64,000 nucleotides of DNA from Chloroflexi bacterium RBG_13_51_36 (GTDB lineage Bacteria > Chloroflexota > Dehalococcoidia > GIF9 > AB-539-J10), in NCBI GenBank assembly GCA_001796515.1, contig MGMS01000028.1, positions 4,355 to 68,354 of the forward strand, read 5' to 3'. The notes below the pieces were generated by a model, which was given only the letters and a program-made list of their open reading frames with translations, made no database searches and was not told the origin of the DNA. The translations under genes and the position numbers were made by a program. Below, piece after piece: positions 1,120 through 61,306 of the stretch. Numbering within the stretch: the first letter of the stretch is position 1; each line of letters opens with the position of its first letter.

Positions 1120-1782
1120 ATGAAGATATTTCTGGATACCGCTAACATAGAACATATTCGTCATGGAGTCGGATTGGGGGTGGTAACTGGGGTTACTACC
1201 AACCCCAGCCTCGTATCGAGAGAAGGCAAAGTTGACTATCGGAAGTTGGTACAGGAAATCTGTGCCATTGTTCCTGGTCCAGTATCAACTGAAGTATTGG
1301 GCCAAGACGTCAAAACGATGGTGACTCAGGCCAGAGAAATAGCGAAATGGGCAGACAATGTGGTGGTCAAGATACCAGCGAGCCTTGAAGGAGTGGAGGC
1401 TACGGCGGTGCTAGCCAAGGAAAACATAAAGGTGAATTTCACTTTGTGCTTCACTTTGAACCAGGTTGTGTTGGGGGCGGCAGCAGGTGCCACTTTTGTG
1501 AGTCCCTTTGTGGGTAGATTAGATGATATCGGTGAGGATGGCATGGGTGTGGTGAGTGATATCGTGGAATACCTCGATTACTATAAGCTGCCTACCCAGG
1601 TTATAGCCGCCAGCATCAGACATCCTCAGCATTGTTTGATGGCAGCGAAGATGGGCGCTCATATTGCAACAGTGCCTTACGAAGTGTTACTACAAATGAT
1701 ACGACACCCTTTAACAGATAGAGGCATCGAGCGTTTTAGAGATGACTGGAAGAACGTGATGGCGAGAGAGGAGTTATTATAG
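1120..1782 (+). CDS. tal: short-type transaldolase / fructose-6-phosphate aldolase family (220 aa)
   Basis: N-terminus MKIFLDTANIEHI...GVTTNPSL is typical of the ~215-aa Tal/Fsa subfamily. It starts 4 nt after the pyrG stop. Confidence 0.8.
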   Translation: MKIFLDTANIEHIRHGVGLGVVTGVTTNPSLVSREGKVDYRKLVQEICAIVPGPVSTEVLGQDVKTMVTQAREIAKWADNVVVKIPASLEGVEATAVLAKENIKVNFTLCFTLNQVVLGAAAGATFVSPFVGRLDDIGEDGMGVVSDIVEYLDYYKLPTQVIAASIRHPQHCLMAAKMGAHIATVPYEVLLQMIRHPLTDRGIERFRDDWKNVMAREELL

Positions 1783-1838
1783 AAGCCCCCCGCAGTACCA
1801 TTGATACATAAAGAAAAGACACTTAGAAAGAGGTCAGT

Positions 1839-3104
1839 ATGTCAACTATAACGCAACTGGAAAGCAAAAACCGGGATGAACTGGAAGCGATGGCTAAAGA
1901 ATGTGGCATTGTTGGGTACACCAATTTAAAGAAATCCGAGCTTGTCTATCGAATACTGCAGGCGGAGGCAGAACAACAGGGAAATATCTTCATAACAGGC
2001 GTTCTTGAAACCATCAGCGAAGGCTATGGCTTCTTGAGGCAAGATACCTTCAGGCGTGGTGCCAATGATGTCTACGTATCAAACTCACAGATTCGGCGTT
2101 TCAACTTGAGGGACGGCGATGCTGTTTGTGGCCAAGCTAGACCTCCCAAGGAAGGCGAAAAATATTACAGTTTGCTCCGAGTAGACGCCATCAACGGGCT
2201 TGACCCTGAATTAGGGAGGACGCGCCGCAATTTCGGTTCGTTGACGCCCACTTTTGCAGATAAGCTCATTGATCTAGAGACAACATCAGATGAGTTATCC
2301 ACTCGTCTGATCAATCTGGTGGCACCTATAGGCCGGGGGCAGAGAGGTCTTATCGTATCGCCGCCTAAGGCAGGCAAGACTGTGCTTCTTCAAAAGATTG
2401 CCAACGCGGCAGCCGCTAAGTACGAGGATATTCACCTTATGGTTTGCCTTATCGGGGAAAGACCCGAAGAAGTCACTGATATGAAGAGGTCAGTTAAGGC
2501 CGAGGTCATTGCTGCCACTTTCGACGAACCGGTAGAAAGCCAGACTAGGGTGGCGGAGTTGGCGTTGGAGAGAGCCAAAAGGTTAGTGGAAATGGGCAAA
2601 GATGTGGTCATACTCCTTGACGGGATCACCAGGCTGACGAGAGCTTACAATTTGGCCTTGCCACCTAGTGGGCGTACCTTATCGGGTGGCATTGATTCAA
2701 CAGCGTTGCATCCTCCCAAGCGATTTTTTGGTACTGCTCGCAACCTTGAGGAGGGAGGGAGTCTGACCATTATTGCCACTTGCCTGGTGGATACCGGCAG
2801 TCGCATGGATGACCTCATCTATGAAGAGTTTAAAGGAACAGGCAATATGGAACTCCACCTCGACAGGAAGTTGGCCGAGCGAAGGATCTTTCCGTCAATA
2901 GATATTATGCCGAGCGGCACGAGGCGAGAGGAGCTTCTGCTGGACGAAAATACCTTGAAGCAAGTGTGGCTGCTCAGGCGTGTGATCAGTATGATAGATA
3001 GCGACTCACCTAATCACGGCGAAGCTACGCAGAGAATCTTGGAACGGTTGGGCAAAACGAAGAATAACGCCGAATTTTTGGCGACTCTGTCTAAAGATAT
3101 CTAG
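1839..3104 (+). CDS. rho: transcription termination factor Rho
   Basis: N-terminal RNA-binding domain, Walker A (SPPKAGKT) and RecA-like ATPase core. 421 aa. A GAGG ribosome-binding site lies upstream. Confidence 0.95.
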
Positions 3105-51622: not shown

Positions 51623-53263
51623 TCAATTCAGATTCCACTCATTCACACTGCACTGCCCGTCGGTGTTGAATCCTGTGGCGACGACAGCCGCGTCAGATTC
51701 GAGCCCTACCGTGTGATAATAGCCTGCGGTAACCTGGACAATGTCTGCCCACGCGTCGACATTGCACTGTCCGCTGTTGTTGAGTCCCACAGCGACCACG
51801 GTGCCATCGGACTTGAGTCCTACGGTGTGATAGTAGCCTGCGGAGACTTGCGTGATGTTTTCCCAGCTACCGACACTGCATTGTCCGAAGTCATTCCATC
51901 CGACGGCGACCACGGTGCCGTCAGTCTTAAGCCCCAAGGTATGATATCCGCCTGCGGCAACCTGCGTGATGTTTTCCCAGCCGTCGACGCTGCACTGCCC
52001 GAAGTAGTCATCACCCATGGCGACCACTGTCCCGTCGGACTTGAGCCCCAGGGTATGTCTATAGCCTGCCGCGACCTGGACGATGTCATACCATTCATCT
52101 ACATCACACTGTCCGTAGCCATTGTCTCCCACGGCAACTACCCTACCGTCAGACTTGAGCCCTACGGTATGCCTATAGCCTGCAGTGACTTGAACGATGT
52201 CCGTCCAGTTACCGACATTGCACTGTCCGTAGTTGTTGAGTCCAACGGCGACCACCGTGCCATCGGTCTTAAGCCCGACGCTATGATATCCGCCTGCAGC
52301 GACGTTGATAGTGTTCTCCCAGCCATCGACATCGCACTGTCCGCTGGTGTTGAGTCCAGTAGCCACCACCGTGCCATCAAACTTGAGTCCCACAGTGTGA
52401 TACCCGCCTGTGGCAACCATCGGGTCGACTTCGAAGTTGGCCGTGACGGTCACAGCTTGACCGGGCATGGTGAATGTAGTCTCCACTGCATTCGCATCAC
52501 TGAATATGCCTGCTGGTGCCGTCCAGTTGACGAAATGATAGCCTTGGCTGGCTTCCGCTTGAATATTGACTACAGTTCCTTCCGCATAAGGTGACCCATC
52601 GGTCATGTCGATCGCTGTGCCGCTACCCATGGGAGATACTGCCATGGTAAGTTCGTAGGTCGGTATCAGTTCGAAATTGGCGGTGACAGTTACAGCTTGA
52701 CCGGGCATGGTGAAAGTAGTCTGTGTTTCATCTGTATTGCCGAACACACCGGCTGGCGCTGTCCAATTAACAAATCCGTAACCTAAGTTGGCTACGGCTT
52801 CTATACTGATCAAAACTCCTTCCTGGTAAGGGCCGGCATTCGTTTCATCGGTTGCCGTTCCGCTGTCGAGGGGAGACAGAGCCATGGTCAATTCGTAAGT
52901 TGGCACCGGCGTCAATTCCTGAAAGATGGCAGAGATTTCGTAATCGTCTTGCATGTCGATGACAGTCACGGGACTCATGACACCCGCTACGGGTTCACCC
53001 AGCCACTGAACAAACTCGAACTCCTCACTCGGGCTGGCCGCGAGGTTGACATCTGTACCCGCAGCAATATCGAATATGATCTCCATCTCACCCGGACCGA
53101 TCGCCGTCTCTTCTCCATTGACTGTGACGGTAACTGAACCTCCAGCAGTGCTGGAGATACTGAGGGCGTATGGAACAGGTTCCTCAGGTGCGGGAGTAGA
53201 TCCACAGCCTATCACCCCGGCAATCAAGGCTGCCATAATCAAAAAGATACCAATTCTTTTCAT
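51623..53263 (-). CDS. secreted/lipoprotein with two tandem Ig-like 'bacterial repeat' domains and a C-terminal RCC1-type beta-propeller
   Basis: Lipoprotein-like signal MKRIGIFLIMAALIAGVIGC. Two ~82-aa repeats follow (YELTMA[LV]SP..SGTA.D...G.Y.EG....I.A.A..GY.FVNWTAPAG.F......TTFTMPGQAVTVTANFE). Six or more RCC1 blades come next (GYHTVGLKSDGTVVAVG.N..GQC.V..W). A GGAGGAGG ribosome-binding site lies upstream. Confidence 0.8.
   Translation of the reverse strand: MKRIGIFLIMAALIAGVIGCGSTPAPEEPVPYALSISSTAGGSVTVTVNGEETAIGPGEMEIIFDIAAGTDVNLAASPSEEFEFVQWLGEPVAGVMSPVTVIDMQDDYEISAIFQELTPVPTYELTMALSPLDSGTATDETNAGPYQEGVLISIEAVANLGYGFVNWTAPAGVFGNTDETQTTFTMPGQAVTVTANFELIPTYELTMAVSPMGSGTAIDMTDGSPYAEGTVVNIQAEASQGYHFVNWTAPAGIFSDANAVETTFTMPGQAVTVTANFEVDPMVATGGYHTVGLKFDGTVVATGLNTSGQCDVDGWENTINVAAGGYHSVGLKTDGTVVAVGLNNYGQCNVGNWTDIVQVTAGYRHTVGLKSDGRVVAVGDNGYGQCDVDEWYDIVQVAAGYRHTLGLKSDGTVVAMGDDYFGQCSVDGWENITQVAAGGYHTLGLKTDGTVVAVGWNDFGQCSVGSWENITQVSAGYYHTVGLKSDGTVVAVGLNNSGQCNVDAWADIVQVTAGYYHTVGLESDAAVVATGFNTDGQCSVNEWNLN
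52431..52922 (-). repeat. two tandem ~246-bp intragenic repeats encoding the duplicated Ig-like domains
   Basis: Copy 1 at 52431-52676 and copy 2 at 52677-52922 align at roughly 75% nucleotide identity (ggtgacggtcacagcttgaccgggcatggtgaa... versus ggtgacagttacagcttgaccgggcatggtgaa...). Confidence 0.5.
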
Positions 53264-53372
53264 ACAATTCCTCCTCCGTTCTTGTTCATATTTCTTCTCC
53301 TTTGTTAAATTTCACAAGATCCAATCTCGACAATATTTGACTATATTAAATATAGCAGAGCTTCGTTTAGCG

Positions 53373-54365
53373 TCAATCGCCCATCAGTAATAGGAATCCA
53401 GTACCATTTGACCACACACTCCCGAACTCATTAAGGAATGATGTAGAACGACACGCTGCGACCCTCTTCTCTCGAACCAGAACAGGCAAATGCTCGTCGG
53501 TGCTGCCAGACGCGAGACCTACTGCGTGATAGTAACGTGCAGACACCTGAACGATGTCTGTCCAGCCAGTGACATTGCACTGACCGGAGTCATTCCACTC
53601 CACCGCACCTACGGTGCCGTCCAGCTAACAAGCCGGTAACCTGGGCTAGCTACTGCCTTAATGCTGACTAAGGCCCCTTGCGGGTAAGGGCCAGCGTTCA
53701 TTTCATCGGTTGCCGTTCCTCAACCGGGGGATATGCAGCCATGGTAGGTTCGTAAGTCAGAGTGGTACTATCTCAAAATTGGCGGTGACGGTTACAGTTT
53801 GGCCGGGCATGATGAAGGTAGTCTCCGCTGCATCCGCATTACCGAATACACCGGCTGGCGCTGTCCAATTAACAAACCCGTAACCTAAGTTGGCTACGGC
53901 TTCTATACTGATCAAAACTCCTTCCTGGTAAGGGCCGGCATTCGTTTCATCGGTGGCCGTTCCACTGTTGAGAGGAGACACAGCCATGCTCAATTCGTAA
54001 GTCGGCACCGGTGTCAATTCCTGAAAGACAGCAAAGATTCTGTAATCATCCTGCATGTGGATGGTAGTCACCAGACTGTCGACATATTGTATCGGTTCAC
54101 CTAGCCACTCGACAAACCCATACTCCTCACTGGGACTGGCCGCCAGCTCGACATCTGTACCTGCGGGAATATCAAGTATGGTCTCCGTCTCACCCGGACC
54201 AATCACCGTCTCTTTTTCATCAACCGTGACGGTAACCGAACCTCCAGCAGTGCTGGAGACGTCGAGGGCGTACACAAGGGGTGTAGCAGTATCAAGAGCG
54301 GACCCACAGGCCATCATCCCTACAACCAAGGCTACCATAATCAAAAACATGTTAAATCTTTTCAT
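53373..54365 (-). pseudogene. decayed tandem paralog of the RCC1-repeat lipoprotein (signal peptide + two Ig-like domains intact, propeller lost)
   Basis: ORF 53757..54365 (MKRFNMFLIMVALVVGMMACGS...) is ~80% identical to the N-terminal 200 aa of the 51623..53263 protein. A frameshifted copy of the repeat follows at 53620-53760, then a single RCC1 blade remnant (53373..53603). The upstream regions of both copies are also homologous. Confidence 0.55.
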
Positions 54366-54804
54366 ATCATTCTCCTCATTTCTCGTGCATGTTTCTTCTA
54401 ACGTCGCAAATCCTTCGAGACCCAATCTCTAATGAATTTGGACTATATCAAGTATGGCACAGCCTTGCTTGGCGTCAATCACCCATCGGTAGGGCGTACT
54501 TCGGTTTTGTTTACGGCCCCTTCTTTGAGTCCGTTAAGTGACGATGTAATGCAACATTGCATATACCATCGCCTGTGGCGGAGAAGCGAATCTTCACCCA
54601 CACGCTTAATGTCATTTCCAGCCCCGACAGGTGGCAAATCGACAGCCGCGTAGTCTTCCTGCCGACGTTGCTCCATCATTTTGATCTCAGCAGCGACAGA
54701 GAGAAAGCCAAACAAGCTGAATGACCGTATTGTTAAACAACAGCAGGCTCAAAACTATCGAACAACTTCCGGGTCTTTAGAAAAATCGAAACGCGAGAGT
54801 CAGG

Positions 54805-56478
54805 CTAACTTATCCTGCCAAACTCTTTCTCCAGTTGATGAGAACTCAAGTGAATCATGGTCGGTCTGCCATGAGGACAGGCGCGAGGTTGCTTCGTTTG
54901 TTCTAGCTGCTTCGTCAGCTCCCGCATCTCTTCATTGGTTAGCTGCTGTCCCGCCCTGACAGCGCCATGGCAAGCCAAGGATTCAGCTATCTTCTCTTCC
55001 CAGGGAGTGAGACTTTCCTTGCTGGCAAGGCTATCAAGAAGTGCAGTTATTATCTCAATAACATTGGCGCCAGCCATCAGCGCAGGTATGGCACGTACCA
55101 AATGGCTCCTATTTCCAAAAGGCTCGATAGCGAAGCCAAACTCAGCCAGAGACTCTTTACTAGTTCTCAGGGTCTCTTCTTCTCTGGGGCTAAACTCCAT
55201 AGTTATGGGTTGGAGCAAGCCCTGGATTTCAACTGTCTTTTGTGACCACTGCGCCAAGATTCGATCGTAAAGTATGCGCTCATGAGCGGCATGCTGGTCA
55301 ATGAGGTATAGTCCATCAGGTCCCTCGGCGATGATATAAGTGTTGGCTAGCTGACCCAGCACTCGCAAAAGCGGCAGTTCTATCGTCGGCAACTGGGAGA
55401 CGGCAAAAACCGGCTCGTTATCCATTATCATGCGGGGACTCTGCCACTGCCCTGAACCGCCCGAGAAAGGCACCGTTTTTTGGGTAGCTATAGATGTTTT
55501 GCCTAATGCCTTGTCTATGGCTTCCCTTACCACAGTGAAGACGGGTTGGTCCTGGCAAAACTTTATCTGGGCTTTGGCAGGATGAATGTTGACATCAAGC
55601 TGTTGAGGCGGCACGGAGACATTGATTACAACGATGGGATGCTGGCCGTCCATGAGTAAACCATGATAGGCTTCCTCCGCGGCCCGCGTTAGCAAAGGAG
55701 TGTGCACCCATCTGCGGTTGACGAAGAAGGTAAGGTAGTTGCGATTCGATCTAGCCAAAGAAGGCGGGCTTGTCAGGCCACTCACTTTAGCCAGACCGTC
55801 CTTTTGTTCCACCTTTAGCATCCTTTGAGCTAGCTCGAGACCATGTATCTTGCTTACTACCTCGCGCAGGTCCGCATTGCCTGTAGTCTGCAGGCTAACG
55901 CGTTTGTCAAGGACCAGGCTAAATCTCACCTCGGGGAAAGCCAGAGCATACTGACTTACTAAATGGGCAATGTGACTATTCTCGGTATTTGCTGACTTGA
56001 GAAACTTAAGTCGCGCCGGGAAATAGCGGAATAGGCGATGGACGGTTACGGTAGTACCCTGCGATCTGGCGCGGCTCTCGTTGCGAACTACCTCGCCGTT
56101 TCTCAAACACATGTAGCTGCCCACAGTCTCCGAAGATGTTTGCGTGAAGATTTCCACTTCAGCGACAGCGGCTATGCTGGGCAATGCTTCGCCTCGAAAG
56201 CCAAGGCTGGAGATTTTCTCCAAATCGTTCAGGTTATTGATCTTGCTCGTGGCATATCGGTGAAAGGCAAGGTCTAACTCCGATGCTGGAATACCCACTC
56301 CGTTATCGCTCACCTTGATTAGCTCCACCCCACCGCCTTGGGCTTCTACTGCAATTTGGGTAGCTGCAGCGTCCAGGGAATTTTCTACGAGCTCCTTGAC
56401 CACTGAGGCCGGCCTCTCGACCACCTCCCCCGCAGCAATCTTGGAGACTACGTCGGTTGCTAAAACCTTGATCGGCAT
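54805..56478 (-). CDS. mutL: DNA mismatch repair protein MutL
   Basis: GHKL ATPase N-terminus IAAGEVVERPASVVKELVENSLDA and a C-terminal dimerisation domain. 557 aa. Confidence 0.9.
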   Translation of the reverse strand: MPIKVLATDVVSKIAAGEVVERPASVVKELVENSLDAAATQIAVEAQGGGVELIKVSDNGVGIPASELDLAFHRYATSKINNLNDLEKISSLGFRGEALPSIAAVAEVEIFTQTSSETVGSYMCLRNGEVVRNESRARSQGTTVTVHRLFRYFPARLKFLKSANTENSHIAHLVSQYALAFPEVRFSLVLDKRVSLQTTGNADLREVVSKIHGLELAQRMLKVEQKDGLAKVSGLTSPPSLARSNRNYLTFFVNRRWVHTPLLTRAAEEAYHGLLMDGQHPIVVINVSVPPQQLDVNIHPAKAQIKFCQDQPVFTVVREAIDKALGKTSIATQKTVPFSGGSGQWQSPRMIMDNEPVFAVSQLPTIELPLLRVLGQLANTYIIAEGPDGLYLIDQHAAHERILYDRILAQWSQKTVEIQGLLQPITMEFSPREEETLRTSKESLAEFGFAIEPFGNRSHLVRAIPALMAGANVIEIITALLDSLASKESLTPWEEKIAESLACHGAVRAGQQLTNEEMRELTKQLEQTKQPRACPHGRPTMIHLSSHQLEKEFGRIS

Positions 56479-56559
56479 CTACGTTTCAGTTTACACGGTT
56501 GCGGGTAGTGGGTCAATTTCATTTTCTATCTAATCATTCGGAAATGATAGAATTAAAAC

Positions 56560-57327
56560 ATGAAATTGGCCAGAATAATCTTCTATAAAGGAGTTAGGAT
56601 TGCTAGTTTTATAGTGGGGGCATTCGGCTTTGCCTTTAACGCTGTTGGTGGGAATTGGCATAGTATATCGTCTAACAACTGGGGGAAGACAGGGGTAATC
56701 GCTTTTGGTGTGTTTGCTATCTTAACACTAGTGAAGGAAATTGATTTGATGTGGCAGCATAAACCTAATATCGTAGTAATACCAGAGATTCACGATGGTA
56801 GAGCCACGTTAGTGGTTAAAAACACTGGTGGCGTGGCGGGCGATTTTACTGCTAAGGCAAGGGTAACAGCGTGTAGACCAGAGGCAGCATTGTATTCCAT
56901 GTGCTGGGAATCATTGTCCGATGCTAGTTGCCATACAGATGGCGATGGTGGCACAGCTTCGATTCTTGTTGCCGAAAAATCAAGAGCAAGGCAAAAGACC
57001 GATGACATTGACACCACTTTCTTCGAGGGAGACCTTGTGTTGTTTAGGATAGGGCAATCGGGGGTAGAGAGATTCCCCACCTTCTCGCAGAAATCTTGGA
57101 AAACCATAAAAGGCGAGAAAGAGATTATGACATACACCCTTACGGAAAGATGTATTCTAGACGTTACGATTACCGCAACGCCAACACTAAAGAACAAGTG
57201 GGAAGGGCAGAAATACCTCTGCGAGATAGAAAAGGGACGTTTGGCTTTATCTAAGACTAGATTATCAAGCCCTCATGTCAGTGGTCAGCCTGACGATTTC
57301 CCCGATATTCCAGATATGGTTGTCTAG
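56560..57327 (+). CDS. hypothetical membrane protein (2 N-terminal TM helices + ~190-aa soluble domain), low GC
   Basis: Region is about 40% GC, against about 53% for the rest of the window. No recognisable motifs. The last ~35 codons overlap the 3' end of the IS1 transposase gene on the opposite strand, so the C-terminus is probably IS-derived. Confidence 0.5.
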   Translation: MKLARIIFYKGVRIASFIVGAFGFAFNAVGGNWHSISSNNWGKTGVIAFGVFAILTLVKEIDLMWQHKPNIVVIPEIHDGRATLVVKNTGGVAGDFTAKARVTACRPEAALYSMCWESLSDASCHTDGDGGTASILVAEKSRARQKTDDIDTTFFEGDLVLFRIGQSGVERFPTFSQKSWKTIKGEKEIMTYTLTERCILDVTITATPTLKNKWEGQKYLCEIEKGRLALSKTRLSSPHVSGQPDDFPDIPDMVV

Positions 57328-58130
57328 GCCTGCTGCCATAGCGGGCGATTTGGGATATGGACTCGTGAGTGTCTTATGTGGTCTGGCAAAGTTATAATAC
57401 ATAAAGTGGAGAGCTACGGCATATTCTAGATTCTCCACCTTCTTCGAGAACGCATTGGTTAATCTTGTAAATCGCCTCATGCTCATTCGCATAGTCAGAT
57501 TTTGCCGTTCTACATAGCTTGTTGAAACCTTTCTCATATCTGGAGAGCCATTGATAGGTTTTGTCTGTGTGCTAGTACACTTTGGCGGACTATAGTGTCC
57601 AAACTTATCCTGATCAATGCCATAGTATTTGACCAGCATAGCGTAATCTATATCATCGCCAAAGGTACGTCTTACCGCTTCATAGTACATTCTGTGTCCG
57701 TCGGTAGTAAGTTGCACACGATTTGAAAGGCGTTCCTTAATATCCCTGAAAAACTCGCAGGCACATTCGGGATTTCGTAGACCTACAAGCCAGCTTACAA
57801 CTAGTTTTGTATCGGCATCAATCGCTACAAATGTCCAAACATCGCCATATCCAAATTGGTTCTGTTTGTCTTGAGGCACATTCTTTGCCTTCGCATAGCA
57901 GAATGACCAGATTTCGTCACATTCTATCCTTTGACAAGATAGATTCCTTAGAGTCTTATCCTGGTATTCAGCACAAACCTTACCAACATCACGCAATAGC
58001 CTGATGACTGTGCCTTTCGCTGTATTTGTTATCCTGCAAGTGGCACGTATTGAGTTCCCTTCGACAAGTGCTTTTATCACTTGGGTTTTACGCTCCAGAC
58101 TTAACTTGTTCATTATCCTATCCCCTTTCT
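57216..58130 (-). mobile_element. putative IS1-family insertion sequence (boundaries tentative)
   Basis: Imperfect terminal inverted repeat: ATAGAAAAGGGAC at about 57219 pairs with the reverse complement of ATCCCCTTTCTAT at about 58110. No target-site duplication could be identified. Confidence 0.4.
57265..58113 (-). CDS. IS1-family DDE transposase (single-ORF InsAB-like)
   Basis: CDEIWSF...AIDADTK...TTDGHRMYYEA and the C-terminal VERQNLTMR...AFSKKVEN block align with IS1 InsB ([46 protein letters not shown]). A PAMAAGL tail is present. Confidence 0.8.
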   Translation of the reverse strand: MNKLSLERKTQVIKALVEGNSIRATCRITNTAKGTVIRLLRDVGKVCAEYQDKTLRNLSCQRIECDEIWSFCYAKAKNVPQDKQNQFGYGDVWTFVAIDADTKLVVSWLVGLRNPECACEFFRDIKERLSNRVQLTTDGHRMYYEAVRRTFGDDIDYAMLVKYYGIDQDKFGHYSPPKCTSTQTKPINGSPDMRKVSTSYVERQNLTMRMSMRRFTRLTNAFSKKVENLEYAVALHFMYYNFARPHKTLTSPYPKSPAMAAGLDNHIWNIGEIVRLTTDMRA

Positions 58131-58205
58131 ATTTGATTATATTATACATGACCGCTCAAGCATTGTCAAGGGGTTTGAGGATAATTAGGGAGGAATTATT
58201 TTGAT

Positions 58206-58793
58206 ATGTATGATATAATTAGAGAAGAAGAATCAAAGACCTTATGGGAGATAATTATGGATAATGCTGAATCTACCTCTAACGATTTGAGCACGAAACT
58301 GCGACAGCGAATTACTGAATATCTCACAAGTGAAGGTTGGAGAGTCGGTGGCGCAAGATACCCGCAAGGTACTCAATGGGTAATTGATGCTAACGATGGT
58401 AAGGGAAGGCCTATTACTATTTATCAAGAATCAACCCCATTGAGAATAGTAGAGCGGATACTGATTATAACTGCTCTAAAATTGGGTGATGAGCATCAAG
58501 AGAAATATGCAGACCTTGGCATTGAAGATAGGCGTGATTTGATTTATGACCTAAGGCAACATCTTATACTTTTAGGCATAGGATATGGAGGGCTTATAGA
58601 CCCATTAACAGAAATGTTGTTTGAGGATATAATTTATCTAGATGAGTTGTCTAAGGGAGGATTCCTGAAGTCTGTCAGAAAAGTTCGGGACGCAAGTATT
58701 TTAGTTGCTACGATTATAGCTAGAAGATTTAACGAACCGCCTCCCGCCGAACCGCCAAGACCTGCGCTGGGCTTCCAATTGCCAGAGAAATAG
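58206..58793 (+). CDS. hypothetical protein (195 aa), low GC
   Basis: A GGGAGG ribosome-binding site lies upstream. About 38% GC. Pro-rich C-terminal tail. No recognisable motifs. Confidence 0.5.
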   Translation: MYDIIREEESKTLWEIIMDNAESTSNDLSTKLRQRITEYLTSEGWRVGGARYPQGTQWVIDANDGKGRPITIYQESTPLRIVERILIITALKLGDEHQEKYADLGIEDRRDLIYDLRQHLILLGIGYGGLIDPLTEMLFEDIIYLDELSKGGFLKSVRKVRDASILVATIIARRFNEPPPAEPPRPALGFQLPEK

Positions 58794-59012
58794 CTATATT
58801 TCTTTACTCCACCTAGCCCTAGCTGCTTTACTTGCTATTTCCTTGCGTTGTTCATTAGTAAGACTTTTAGCTCTAGCCTTACCACCTTTTAAGCCACCAA
58901 GTCTGCCAAGTGTTACAGCAGCAGGGTTTTTGACAACCTGAGCCTCATCAATAACTTGCCCAACAACATTAGCAGCTATTACATTTATATCTTTACTTGA
59001 CCGCTTAGGCAT
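58794..59012 (-). CDS. hypothetical small basic protein with KGG-type C-terminal motif
   Basis: 72 aa. GRLGGLKGGKARAKSLTNEQRKEIASKAARARW resembles a widespread motif (GGKARA...ERR.EIA.KAA.ARW) of unknown function. Low GC. Confidence 0.4.
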   Translation of the reverse strand: MPKRSSKDINVIAANVVGQVIDEAQVVKNPAAVTLGRLGGLKGGKARAKSLTNEQRKEIASKAARARWSKEI

Positions 59013-59101
59013 ACTTTAATTGTAGCATATTATACTAAGCTGTCAAGGTTTTGGAATTTCAAATTGACCCACTACCCGGTTGCGTGTATCTTGTCAATAG
59101 G

Positions 59102-61306
59102 TTATGAGGAAAAATCCAAGTCTTTATCGATTCTCTCCAGTGGTGCCAGGCTGGCGAGGAGTTTCTTAACTCCAAACTCTTCAAAGACTACAGTCAATTC
59201 TTGGTCATCCCTGGTAGGACTGCAATTCATTACAATGCCTGGGCCAAATCTGACGTGGCGGACATGATCACCGACCTTCAGTGTCAAAGTGCTGGAATGT
59301 CGAAGTGAAGGCCCGAGGCTTTGGCTAAAATCGAGACTAGCTACAGGAGTCGGGCTGTCTTCCCATAAGCCTCTCGGGCTTATCAGGTGAGGTGAGATAT
59401 CCCGGAGAAAACGGGATGGCGGGTTTGCTGTGCTGCCGCCGAATAAGTTCCGACGGTAAGTGCGCAAAAGGTAGAGATGCTTCCTAGCCCTGGTTATGCC
59501 CACGTAGCAAAGACGACGCTCTTCTTCCATTTGTTCCGGGTCGTCGAATGACTTTCTGTGTGGGAGCATCCCTTCCTCCATGCCAACAATAAAAACCGCG
59601 GCAAACTCCAGGCCTTTGGCTTGGTGTAAAGTTATCAAAGTCACCGCATCGGCCTTTTCATCCAGTTCATCTATATCTGATACCAGGCTTACTTTCTCCA
59701 GGAATGCCGTCAAAGCTTCTTCAGGGGCAAGCGCATCATATTCGCTGGCGACACTGCGCAGCTCCATTACGTTCTCCCATCGTTCCTCACCATCGTCTTT
59801 GCCCAGGATGAATGCCCTGTACCCCGTGCGCTCCAGTATTTCATCGAGTAGACCAGAAAAGCTTGACTCACAACTCTGGTTGGTGAGCTTAATCATAAGA
59901 GCATCAAATCCGGCCAGAGCCTGGACAATGCGCGCGGACAGGGATTGTTTCGCTTCGCCGGCAGTCACATTCCGGCCCATCTGTTTCAGGGCTTCGAAAA
60001 GGGATGTGTCGTGGTCTCTTGCCCAGGATCGAAGCAGGCTGATGGTTTTTTGCCCGATACCTCTGCCGGGCACATTTATGATTCGAGTCAAACTGATATT
60101 GTCCTGTGGATTATGGATGAGCCTGAGGTAGGCAACAATGTCTTTAATCTCTTGCCTCTGGTAGAATCGGGTGCCGCCAACAAGCTTATAGGGCACTCCA
60201 TACCTCAGGAAGGTCTCTTCTAAAGCTCGTGATTGGGCATTAACCCGATACATAACAGCGCAATCCTTGAGGGATATTTGCTCCTGACCAATCAACTTCT
60301 CTATCTCGTTGGCCACGGATTGCGCTTCTTCTTCGGCACTGTAACTTTCGATAACCATTATCGGCGCTCCATCTTCGTTTTCCGTCCACAACTTTTTGGG
60401 CTTGCGCAGCACATTGGTCGAGATTACATCTGACGCTACCTCTAGTATTGTCCTGGTGGAGCGATAATTCTGTTCCAAAAACACAACTTTGGCTTCGGGA
60501 TAATCTTTTTCGAAACTCAGGATATTGCGCAAATCAGCAAATCTCCAGGAATAGATGGATTGGTCAGGGTCGCCGACTACACACAGATTCCGGTATTTTC
60601 CTGCCAGTTGTTTCATGAGCTCATACTGGGCGATATTGGTGTCCTGAAACTCGTCGACAAGAATATGAACGTATTTTGACTGGTATCTGTGGAGGATTTT
60701 AGGATGGTCACGGAACAACTGGACCGTCCTCATCAGTAAGTCGTCGAAATCTACTGCCACACCCTGCCTAAGTAATTGTTCATAGCGTTGATAGACCCTC
60801 TGAACAATTTCTTCAAAATAACTACCGACCCACTGGCCATAGTTCTCAGGGCTAATGAGACGGCTCTTTGCAGAGCCGATGGCTGAACGTATCGCCTGAG
60901 GGGCATACTGCTTGGCATCGAGGTTCAATTCTTCCATGGTTTGTTTCATCAACCTTAACTGGTCGTCGTCATCATAGATGACGAAATTAGACTCAAGCCC
61001 AACAGCTCCACCTTCATGACGGAGAATCCGAGCGCAAATTGCATGAAATGTGCCCAAGGTCAAGGCGGCTGCCATCTGGCCCAGAAGTTGCTCCAATCTC
61101 TCTTTCATTTCTCTGGCGGCTTTGTTGGTAAAGGTGACCGCCATAATGTGGTGAGGGGCAACGCCGCAGACCTTAACCAGATAAGCAACTCTGTGGGTGA
61201 TCACTCTGGTCTTGCCGCTGCCGGGTCCAGCCAGTATAAGTACAGGGCCTTCGATGGACTCCACAGCTTCTCTTTGGGCAAGATTAAGCGCGGCCAAGAT
61301 ATCCAT
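59102..61306 (-). CDS. pcrA: ATP-dependent DNA helicase PcrA/UvrD
   Basis: Superfamily-1 motifs (LAGPGSGKT, DEFQDTN, VGDPDQSIY, ...) and a C-terminal Tudor-like RNAP-interaction domain (KVGDHVRHVRFGPGIV). 734 aa. Confidence 0.9.
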   Translation of the reverse strand: MDILAALNLAQREAVESIEGPVLILAGPGSGKTRVITHRVAYLVKVCGVAPHHIMAVTFTNKAAREMKERLEQLLGQMAAALTLGTFHAICARILRHEGGAVGLESNFVIYDDDDQLRLMKQTMEELNLDAKQYAPQAIRSAIGSAKSRLISPENYGQWVGSYFEEIVQRVYQRYEQLLRQGVAVDFDDLLMRTVQLFRDHPKILHRYQSKYVHILVDEFQDTNIAQYELMKQLAGKYRNLCVVGDPDQSIYSWRFADLRNILSFEKDYPEAKVVFLEQNYRSTRTILEVASDVISTNVLRKPKKLWTENEDGAPIMVIESYSAEEEAQSVANEIEKLIGQEQISLKDCAVMYRVNAQSRALEETFLRYGVPYKLVGGTRFYQRQEIKDIVAYLRLIHNPQDNISLTRIINVPGRGIGQKTISLLRSWARDHDTSLFEALKQMGRNVTAGEAKQSLSARIVQALAGFDALMIKLTNQSCESSFSGLLDEILERTGYRAFILGKDDGEERWENVMELRSVASEYDALAPEEALTAFLEKVSLVSDIDELDEKADAVTLITLHQAKGLEFAAVFIVGMEEGMLPHRKSFDDPEQMEEERRLCYVGITRARKHLYLLRTYRRNLFGGSTANPPSRFLRDISPHLISPRGLWEDSPTPVASLDFSQSLGPSLRHSSTLTLKVGDHVRHVRFGPGIVMNCSPTRDDQELTVVFEEFGVKKLLASLAPLERIDKDLDFSS

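Follow-up and report, generated by a model that had tools for sequence, protein, structure and literature searches.

A passenger-carrying IS1-type transposon in the spacer between pcrA and mutL of a Chloroflexota genome

We analyzed a 64-kb stretch of DNA from Chloroflexi bacterium RBG_13_51_36 (contig MGMS01000028.1; hereafter the window), in which mutL and the pcrA/UvrD helicase gene are separated by an island of low GC content. The island is very probably a single autonomous insertion sequence (IS) of the IS1 type and of the class called transporter IS (tIS), inserted in a hairpin-forming pcrA-mutL spacer that also acts as a defense hotspot. It consists of a transposase gene, a small core gene (ORF4) and two passenger genes (ORF1 and ORF3), all of which are enclosed by the same pair of terminal inverted repeats (IRs) and flanked by a target-site duplication (TSD).

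Delimitation of the element

The mutL-pcrA spacer of the window is filled by four open reading frames (ORFs), and the positions given for them in a preliminary description of the sequence were confirmed. The low GC content noted there was also reproduced. In 400-nt segments it decreases from approximately 0.52 outside to 0.39–0.47 across the island, and the GC content at third codon positions (GC3) is 0.23–0.45 in the island genes compared with 0.54–0.585 in four host genes. The element as a whole has a GC content of 0.42, compared with 0.515 in the rest of the window.

A repeat search revealed a 35-nt imperfect inverted repeat that encloses the whole island. Its perfect 16-nt core, GGTAGTGGGTCAATTT, occurs exactly twice in the window, at the two ends of the island and in inverted orientation; when up to three mismatches are allowed, 0.52 matches are expected in the window. 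Identical copies of the 8-mer CGGTTGCG lie directly outside both IRs. Inverted ends accompanied by a direct duplication of 8 bp characterize DDE transposons, and we therefore designated positions 56504–59076 as the transposable unit (Table 1). Both ORF1 and ORF3 are enclosed by the IRs, and the TSD copies border the unit as a whole. Self-BLAST detected no second transposase copy, leaving one transposase gene inside the element. The earlier view of the island, as an IS element accompanied by three separate genes, had missed these ends and has to be replaced by one IR-bounded, TSD-flanked transposon.

Excision of the element together with one 8-mer in silico leaves a 42-nt pcrA-mutL spacer with the hairpin TACACG-GTTG-CGTGTA. 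The regenerated sequence, TTACA-CGGTTGCG-TGTAT, is the hairpin spacer that is intact in 65 empty relatives (discussed below).

Within the element, ORF1 is convergent with the transposase gene and overlaps it by 63 nt, covering its 3′ end. ORF3 and ORF4 are also convergent and abut stop-to-stop at 58793/58794 with no spacer, a geometry that is retained in three other loci (L092, L098, and L102). Such an arrangement implies that the transcription of cargo genes would collide with, or be coupled in antisense to, that of core genes.

Table 1. Positions of the element, its genes and its sequence signals in the window.
Feature	Position	Strand	Remarks
mutL	54805-56478	-	Strong Pfam support; one flank of the island
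TSD, left copy	56496-56503	.	CGGTTGCG; identical 8-mer directly outside both IRs
Whole element	56504-59076		2573 bp; IR-to-IR unit flanked by TSD
Terminal IR, transposase-distal (slot 2) end	56504-56519	+	GGTAGTGGGTCAATTT; similarity reaches ~56526
Palindrome of the preliminary description	56533-56548	.	ATCATTCGGAAATGAT (ATCATT-cgga-AATGAT); upstream of ORF1
ORF1	56560-57327	+	255 aa; cargo slot 2; two N-terminal transmembrane (TM) helices and all-beta domain
Transposase	57265-58113	-	IS1-type DDE transposase; 282 aa; single ORF; N-terminal helix-turn-helix (HTH)
Promoter-like site of the transposase gene	58141-58169	-	TTGACA-17-TATAAT (12/12); consensus scan
ORF3	58206-58793	+	195 aa; cargo slot 1; DUF2299; Pro-rich tail
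ORF4	58794-59012	-	72 aa; pI 10.8; "KGG" protein; core accessory gene
Promoter-like site of ORF4	59019-59046	-	TTGACA-16-(TG)TACAAT; ends 7 nt before ATG
Terminal IR, ORF4-proximal end	59061-59076	-	Perfect 16-nt IR
TSD, right copy	59077-59084	.	CGGTTGCG; same 8-mer as the left copy
pcrA/UvrD helicase	59102-61306	-	Strong Pfam support; other flank of the island

Transposase and element family

The transposase is assigned to the IS1 type on the basis of its profile matches and the database names of its homologues, in agreement with the preliminary description. It matches Pfam PF03400 with 28.5 bits (cutoff 24.1) over residues 195–233 only, and the NCBIfam model transpos_IS1 with 64.6 bits (E = 1.2e-17), under the cutoff of 100; weaker matches were obtained with IS481, IS6, and IS1595 models. 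Every candidate that was scored was significant, giving at least 8000 relatives, and both NCBI and JGI use the name "IS1 family transposase" for homologues. The putative DDE residues Asp66, Asp138, and Glu202 are each conserved in at least 97% of 56 family transposases. The gene is one uninterrupted ORF with no insA/insB′ frameshift arrangement, and the small upstream ORF4 is separated from it by a gene on the opposite strand, which fits the single-ORF IS1 subgroups only.

The family was surveyed at 80 genomic transposase loci from Dehalococcoidia, other Chloroflexota, Actinomycetota, Acidobacteriota, Planctomycetota, Proteobacteria, Nitrospirota, and archaeal bins. A search with the IR pattern delimited 57 elements of 1961–6324 bp, 46 of which have perfect 8-bp TSDs. 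The IR consensus of the window element recurs at the ends of relatives in many phyla, and the family IR can be written as GGTAGTG(GG/TC)TCA(A/G)TTTGA. No bare IS was present among the delimited elements, as the transposase start was never closer than 1060 nt to the left IR. Clustering of all ORFs gave a common layout: IR, KGG ORF, slot 1, transposase, optional slot 2, and IR. Slot 1 separates the KGG gene from the transposase gene, and slot 2 follows the transposase stop codon, before the far IR. The window element has ORF3 in slot 1 and ORF1 in slot 2, and both genes run in the direction opposite to its transposase gene.

In the 47 reconstructed targets (L004–L081 and the window), the pentamer GTCAA is enriched 5–9 nt to the left of the TSD and TTGAC 8–12 nt to its right, with up to 26 of the 47 at a given position; the same pentamer is also present inside the family IR. 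The transposase may thus prefer an IR-like or −35-like sequence beside its target. A palindromic-target rule was considered, as the window TSD is centered on the hairpin loop, but was rejected because the 47 targets show no dyad symmetry.

The copy at L072 (2108–8431) measures 6.3 kb; its slot 2 contains a 1099-aa ORF, and it lacks a matching TSD. A scan of the family's cargo ORFs, with hits recorded for the set as a whole, gave one match to the specificity domain of type ISP restriction enzymes (PF18135) as well as matches to unrelated transposases (PF13701 and PF01609); the latter suggest nesting of one IS in another. Copies from cultured organisms have the same build but are annotated gene by gene. 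In the cultured rhizobium Mesorhizobium loti (CP050295.1, L212), the genes of the element are annotated separately, with no mobile-element feature, as "histone H1", a hypothetical protein, an HTH protein, and an "IS1 family transposase".

The KGG protein, a core gene of the element

The 72-aa KGG protein encoded by ORF4 is a core gene of the element and not cargo, because it is present in 57 of 58 family elements in a fixed layout. Its start codon is usually located 64–68 nt from the element tip, and tblastn placed KGG homologues upstream of and co-oriented with the transposase gene at more than 45 of the 80 loci. The family comprises 5184 representative clusters, nearly all of which are small proteins. 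ORF4 contains the motif ..KNPAAVxLGRLGGLKGGKARAxxLxxEQRxEIAxKAAxARW, and two blocks are conserved in the family, DxNxLAxxIV and KNPAAVALGRLGGLKGGKARAxKLxxExRxEIAxKAAxARW.

The Pfam search of ORF4 (E ≤ 1) returned an irrelevant basic helix-loop-helix match (E = 0.11), the search against sequences in the Protein Data Bank (PDB) returned only artificial alphaRep/HEAT repeat proteins with per-stretch E values above 50, and the family profile had no match in the PDB. ORF4 matches a PHROG of unknown function (338 positions) at its N-terminus (4.4e-7), and NCBIfam gave no significant match. The KGG-like motif in the preliminary description does not denote a KGG repeat. The repeat of KGG stress proteins (Pfam PF10685) was matched by none of the 37 family members examined, and one member matched LEA_5 at 0.0033; "KGG-like" is therefore used here as a description only. 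The homologue in M. loti (L212, 1575–1784) is the one annotated as "histone H1".

The KGG/ARW C-terminal block of ORF4 also forms the N-terminus of an L004 protein (1471–2550, minus strand) with a P63C domain (8e-16), and ORFs of 331–366 aa in L011, L042, L049, L066, L075, and L077 were clustered with ORF4.

Because ORF4 occupies the place where IS1 encodes InsA, being the first gene, small, basic, and preceded by an IR-side promoter-like sequence, the KGG protein is most likely a DNA-binding regulator or cofactor of transposition.

Putative expression signals

The promoter assignments given here are pattern matches of a consensus scan only. In 36 elements from many phyla, the spacing of the IR, the −35 element, the extended −10 element, and the ATG codon at the ORF4 end is conserved. 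On the basis of this spacing, the ORF4 mRNA is probably leaderless.

Both IRs carry an outward TTGACC. At the mutL side, it forms TTGACC-17-TAAACT (56488–56516, minus strand), which ends approximately 10 nt before the mutL ATG codon at 56478. This arrangement is a possible IR-flank hybrid promoter for mutL and could compensate for the separation of mutL from pcrA. The sequence at the other IR, TTGACC-17-TATCTT, is directed antisense into the 3′ end of pcrA.

The palindrome that had been pointed out upstream of ORF1 is indeed present, and it overlaps the sequence TGaTAGAAT, which by eye resembles an extended −10 element. The element contains five palindromes with 6-bp arms and loops of 3–8 nt, compared with 4.2 ± 2.7 in shuffled sequences; the palindrome upstream of ORF1 is thus not above chance level and has no evidence of conservation.

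Downstream of mutL (51623–54425, minus strand), the window encodes two similar putative lipoproteins, of 546 and 222 aa, that contain Flg_new_2 and RCC1-type repeats; the interval between them holds a short fragment of an RCC1-like ORF (53373–53603). The pair looks like duplicated, partly degraded paralogues.

Passenger genes

The cargo of the family consists mostly of defense or toxin-antitoxin (TA) genes. Among 121 cargo ORFs screened with PADLOC, PD-Lambda-2_B accounts for 12 and RmrA, the antitoxin of RosmerTA, for 9–11 (best 6e-145). Further PADLOC matches include PDC-S13 (1.5e-111), PDC-S05, PDC-M69, capP/capH-like regulators, and a type I specificity subunit. The Pfam domains in the cargo comprise SDH/ClpP-like proteases, NYN, HNH, a type ISP enzyme, Fic, SocA/Panacea, a dCTP-deaminase-like domain, a STAND/AAA ATPase, and a methylase-HNH fusion. 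A copy in Acidiphilium multivorum carries a RES toxin and an Xre antitoxin in slot 2, which overlap the 3′ end of the transposase gene.

Elements at the same chromosomal junction as the window copy have comparable contents. Slot 1 of L005 holds an HTH and M78 peptidase protein matching PD-Lambda-2_B (1.9e-41), a HigB-like toxin (1.7e-9), and a 158-aa protein, and slot 1 of L004 holds a P63C-domain protein. In slot 2, PDC-S42 is present in L005 (4e-72) and L098 (2e-99), and an NYN protein matching HEC-09 (1e-69) is present in L092. Since relatives carry anti-phage defense genes in the same positions, the passengers of the window are candidates for new defense genes.

ORF3 matches DUF2299 (PF10061) with E = 8e-10 and 39.1 bits (cutoff 22.8), above the gathering threshold over most of the domain, and its predicted structure has a fold like those of type III secretion chaperones and YbjN, of a protein-binding type. 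The statement that none of the proteins carries a recognized domain thus does not apply to ORF3. ORF1, ORF3, and ORF4 have no match in PADLOC. Every DUF2299-carrying copy that we found is located at the pcrA-mutL junction.

ORF1 is predicted to have two N-terminal helices followed by an all-beta domain; the model is weak (predicted local distance difference test score of 57), and its fold matches are generic. Neither ORF1 nor ORF3 had a significant match in PHROGs or NCBIfam. The ORF1 family is very rare, with seven clusters among 5.8 billion proteins, and context look-ups with the exact proteins of the window returned only the same locus, from metagenomes. In both other contexts that were recovered, the ORF1 relative faces the 3′ end of an IS1595-type transposase gene in convergent orientation. 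The first (L084, 4465–6797) is a 2333-bp unit with 22-nt perfect IRs, CGGGATTATATACTTGACAAAG, in which the ORF1 homologue overlaps the transposase gene by 56 nt; in the second (L089, 2333–3786), the two genes are 144 nt apart. The two transposases are 39% identical, and neither has BLAST similarity to that of the window. ORF1 therefore looks like a dedicated IS passenger. The L084 unit has no obvious TSD, and approximately 515 nt between its IR and the ORF1 homologue is apparently non-coding.

The most likely role of ORF1 and ORF3, judged by position only, would be defense or exclusion, an assignment that is tentative and falls somewhat short of probable. The idea of a defense or toxin locus in the preliminary description is accordingly plausible from the context, namely the cargo of sister elements and the hotspot, but the proteins of the window have no PADLOC match of their own. 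Instead of protecting the host against phages, the passengers could serve the transposon by controlling transposition, by affecting target choice or immunity, or through post-segregational addiction. This is rather unlikely, yet several observations would fit it. The ORF1 family occurs only near the 3′ end of IS1- or IS1595-type transposase genes, in three of three contexts and always convergently, the chaperone fold predicted for ORF3 could bind the transposase, and many family cargoes are TA-like while the two proteins here lack a PADLOC match. However, unrelated genes fill both slots in sister elements with near-identical transposases, so neither passenger is needed for transposition, and elsewhere the slots hold bona fide defense systems or candidates.

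Insertion site and its recurrent occupation

Given that lineages share conserved flanks, a metagenome collection was scanned for the reconstructed empty site, TTACACGGTTKCGTGTATNNTGTCAAT. All 107 loci recovered have pcrA and/or mutL adjoining the match, and 90 have both. The pcrA-mutL gap is 38–69 nt in 65 of these 90 loci and 200 nt in four, and the remaining 21 contain an insert of 1–4 kb. The mutL identity to the window is 67–89% in the 51 empty-site loci with a long enough match, the same range as in the occupied lineages. The IRs and the 8-bp repeat pair do not belong to the native spacer, as they are absent from the empty-site genomes. The horizontal acquisition proposed in the preliminary description is supported by these empty junctions and by the disagreement between the host and element phylogenies.

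A family element occupies the identical 8-bp target in six Dehalococcoidia lineages (the window, L004, L005, L092, L098, and L102), in the orientation of the window in four of them and inverted in two. Their TSD is either CGGTTGCG or CGGTTTCG and is always identical on both sides of a given element. This shared use of one target suggests a strong site preference or repeated recolonization. Recombination between its IRs can turn an IS around in place, as has been described for other IS (PMC3004938), and could play an additional part here.

The relationships of the hosts and of their elements are incongruent. L005 and L098 have close hosts (mutL 94% and pcrA 92% identical), whereas their transposases are 81% and their KGG proteins 66% identical, and their cargo is different. 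The hosts of the window and L102 are approximately 79% identical, whereas their DUF2299 proteins are 94% and their KGG proteins 67% identical; the KGG protein of the window is nearest to that of L098 (82%). Vertical co-divergence of element and host is ruled out by these values, and the elements are therefore mosaic, horizontally exchanged, and colonize the site repeatedly.

The same data bear on whether the element is an ancient, vertically inherited fixture of the junction, domesticated for example as a mutL promoter and changed by in-place inversion and cassette replacement. The use of one exact target in six lineages, the restriction of all observed DUF2299 copies to this junction, the pairing of an outward TTGACC with a −10-like TAAACT before the mutL ATG codon, and the documented IR-IR inversion of IS are consistent with such a history. 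We consider it improbable, because the 65 empty-site relatives are interleaved in the same identity range, close hosts (L005 and L098) carry very different elements while distant hosts share a DUF2299 protein at 94% identity, and the TSD variant (G or T) is matched on both sides, which fits insertion after the target had diverged. The IRs, TSD, transposase ORF, and promoter-like sites are also all intact.

The 21 non-IS inserts among the metagenome loci with the intact hairpin (L105–L211) lie on its mutL side in 20 loci and on its pcrA side in one. They comprise type II methylases with TdeIII, BsobI, EcoO109I, or BglII endonucleases, type I/IIG parts, and one HEPN-nucleotidyltransferase pair. 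Since these restriction-modification (RM) and HEPN inserts occur at the same junction as the defense-carrying elements, the pcrA-mutL junction is a clade-wide defense hotspot, which is filled in part by the transposon family.

Interpretation and significance

The proposed mechanism is as follows. The DDE transposase, with its HTH and its Asp66/Asp138/Glu202 residues, would bind both IRs and join them to target DNA whose two strands are cut 8 bp apart. The KGG gene would be transcribed, probably as a leaderless mRNA, from the conserved IR-side promoter. The two cassette positions would hold exchangeable passengers, and defense or TA cargo would benefit the host and thereby stabilize the element. 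In the window copy, slot 1 contains the DUF2299 protein and slot 2 the 2-TM beta-rich protein, as independent cassettes.

Several points weigh against this interpretation. The IS1 profile matches are partial (39 residues in Pfam, and 64.6 bits against a cutoff of 100 in NCBIfam). A search of PADLOC-DB v2 with ORF1, the transposase, ORF3, and ORF4 gave a best E value of 0.046, that is, no match. DUF2299 and the ORF1 family are experimentally uncharacterized, and the structural model of ORF1 has low confidence. The regulator role of the KGG protein is inferred from position, charge, and conservation only. There is one copy of the element in the window and all DUF2299 copies are at this junction, so this copy can be called only potentially mobile at present.

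ORF1 and ORF3 are independent cassettes and not partners, because ORF3 occurs with three other slot 2 genes and ORF1 occurs without ORF3. Relatives of the DUF2299 protein with 81–94% identity co-occur with the NYN/HEC-09 protein, a second NYN protein, or PDC-S42 in slot 2, and the ORF1 relatives in the IS1595-type elements have no DUF2299 protein beside them. The preliminary description had instead seen a membrane protein with a soluble partner, which would make the two proteins one two-component defense, abortive-infection, or toxin system with the IS merely adjacent. Both are uncharacterized, have a foreign composition, and share one island, and a membrane effector with a soluble sensor is a common design of defense systems. 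Nevertheless, such a system is highly improbable here, as the genes stand on opposite sides of the transposase gene in separate cassette positions, are separable in distribution, and are enclosed by the element ends rather than lying next to an IS. Finally, a chance origin of the IR and the 8-bp repeat around a patchwork of independently acquired genes and a small IS has a negligible probability, because, common as short repeats are (the palindrome upstream of ORF1 is itself at chance level), the 16-mer occurs exactly twice in 64 kb, inverted and at the ends, with 0.52 matches expected even at three mismatches, the same IR and 8-bp TSD bracket 46 independent relatives, and excision yields the spacer of the 65 empty sites.

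The reading of the island as a single transposon turns a group of uncharacterized genes into a mobile unit with exact ends, which contains one core transposon gene and two swappable passengers. Because the slot occupants are enriched for defense and TA functions, ORF1 and the DUF2299 protein are cheap and well-delimited candidates. A DDE transposon that reuses one 8-bp target beside DNA-repair genes links target choice with the formation of defense hotspots. The insertion also splits mutL from pcrA, and the possible hybrid promoter could affect the expression of mismatch repair.

Comparison with known systems

The terminal tip of the IS1 family is GGnnnTG. The IRs of the element begin with GGTAGTG, which fits this tip, and the tip is conserved in its relatives. 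The 8-bp CGGTTGCG on both sides agrees with the TSD of 8–9 bp expected for the family. As in the E. coli prototype IS1, a small basic protein is encoded first, near the left IR, where IS1 encodes InsA; this likeness is positional only, as ORF4 has no detectable similarity to any Pfam family. In contrast to IS1, the element is 2.6 kb rather than approximately 0.77 kb in length, has two passenger slots, and encodes its transposase in a single ORF without the insA-insB′ frameshift.

The DUF2299 structure in the PDB (3CXJ) has no assigned function, and ORF3 differs from it by an additional Pro-rich C-terminal tail. The identity of ORF3 to type III secretion chaperones of the CesT/SycE class is 7–13%, and no secretion system is encoded nearby; ORF3 is accordingly not placed in that class. 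RosmerTA, PD-Lambda-2, PDC-S42, and HEC-09 occupy the same slots in sister elements, some of them at the same chromosomal site, and their models are not matched by ORF1 or ORF3 of the window.

Defense islands and hotspots between core genes are a further point of comparison. In this Dehalococcoidia clade, the pcrA-mutL junction is found empty, with RM or HEPN-nucleotidyltransferase genes, or with a defense-carrying tIS. Unlike an integrase-borne island, one type of occupant here is a DDE transposon, which uses a single exact 8-bp target and is inserted in either orientation.

IS derivatives with passenger genes inside their IRs are an established kind, the tIS (PMC9330008, PMC7986276, PMC3129680). 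Siguier, Gagnevin & Chandler (2009), as cited in PMC3129680, were the first to discuss them, in connection with the IS1595 family and how it relates to IS1. A literature search for ISMhu11, DUF2299, and IS1-family elements with defense cargo returned, in the library searched, no paper on this clade, its KGG gene, or its defense cargo. This comparison covered the literature, and the clade may already bear a name in ISfinder. That it is a so far undescribed, cross-phylum IS1-type clade acting as a dedicated defense and TA shuttle, with ORF1 and ORF3 as new defense genes, is a far-reaching proposal that we regard as doubtful in this combined form. The general features of tIS are all shared by the element, namely an IS-like unit with its own IRs and TSD and with passengers unrelated to transposition inside the IRs. 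It has a single transposase gene and is thus not composite, a TSD flanks the full unit, and 65 empty sites are available for comparison. What distinguishes its clade from other tIS is the fixed KGG gene, the two defined cargo positions, and a cargo dominated by defense and TA genes.

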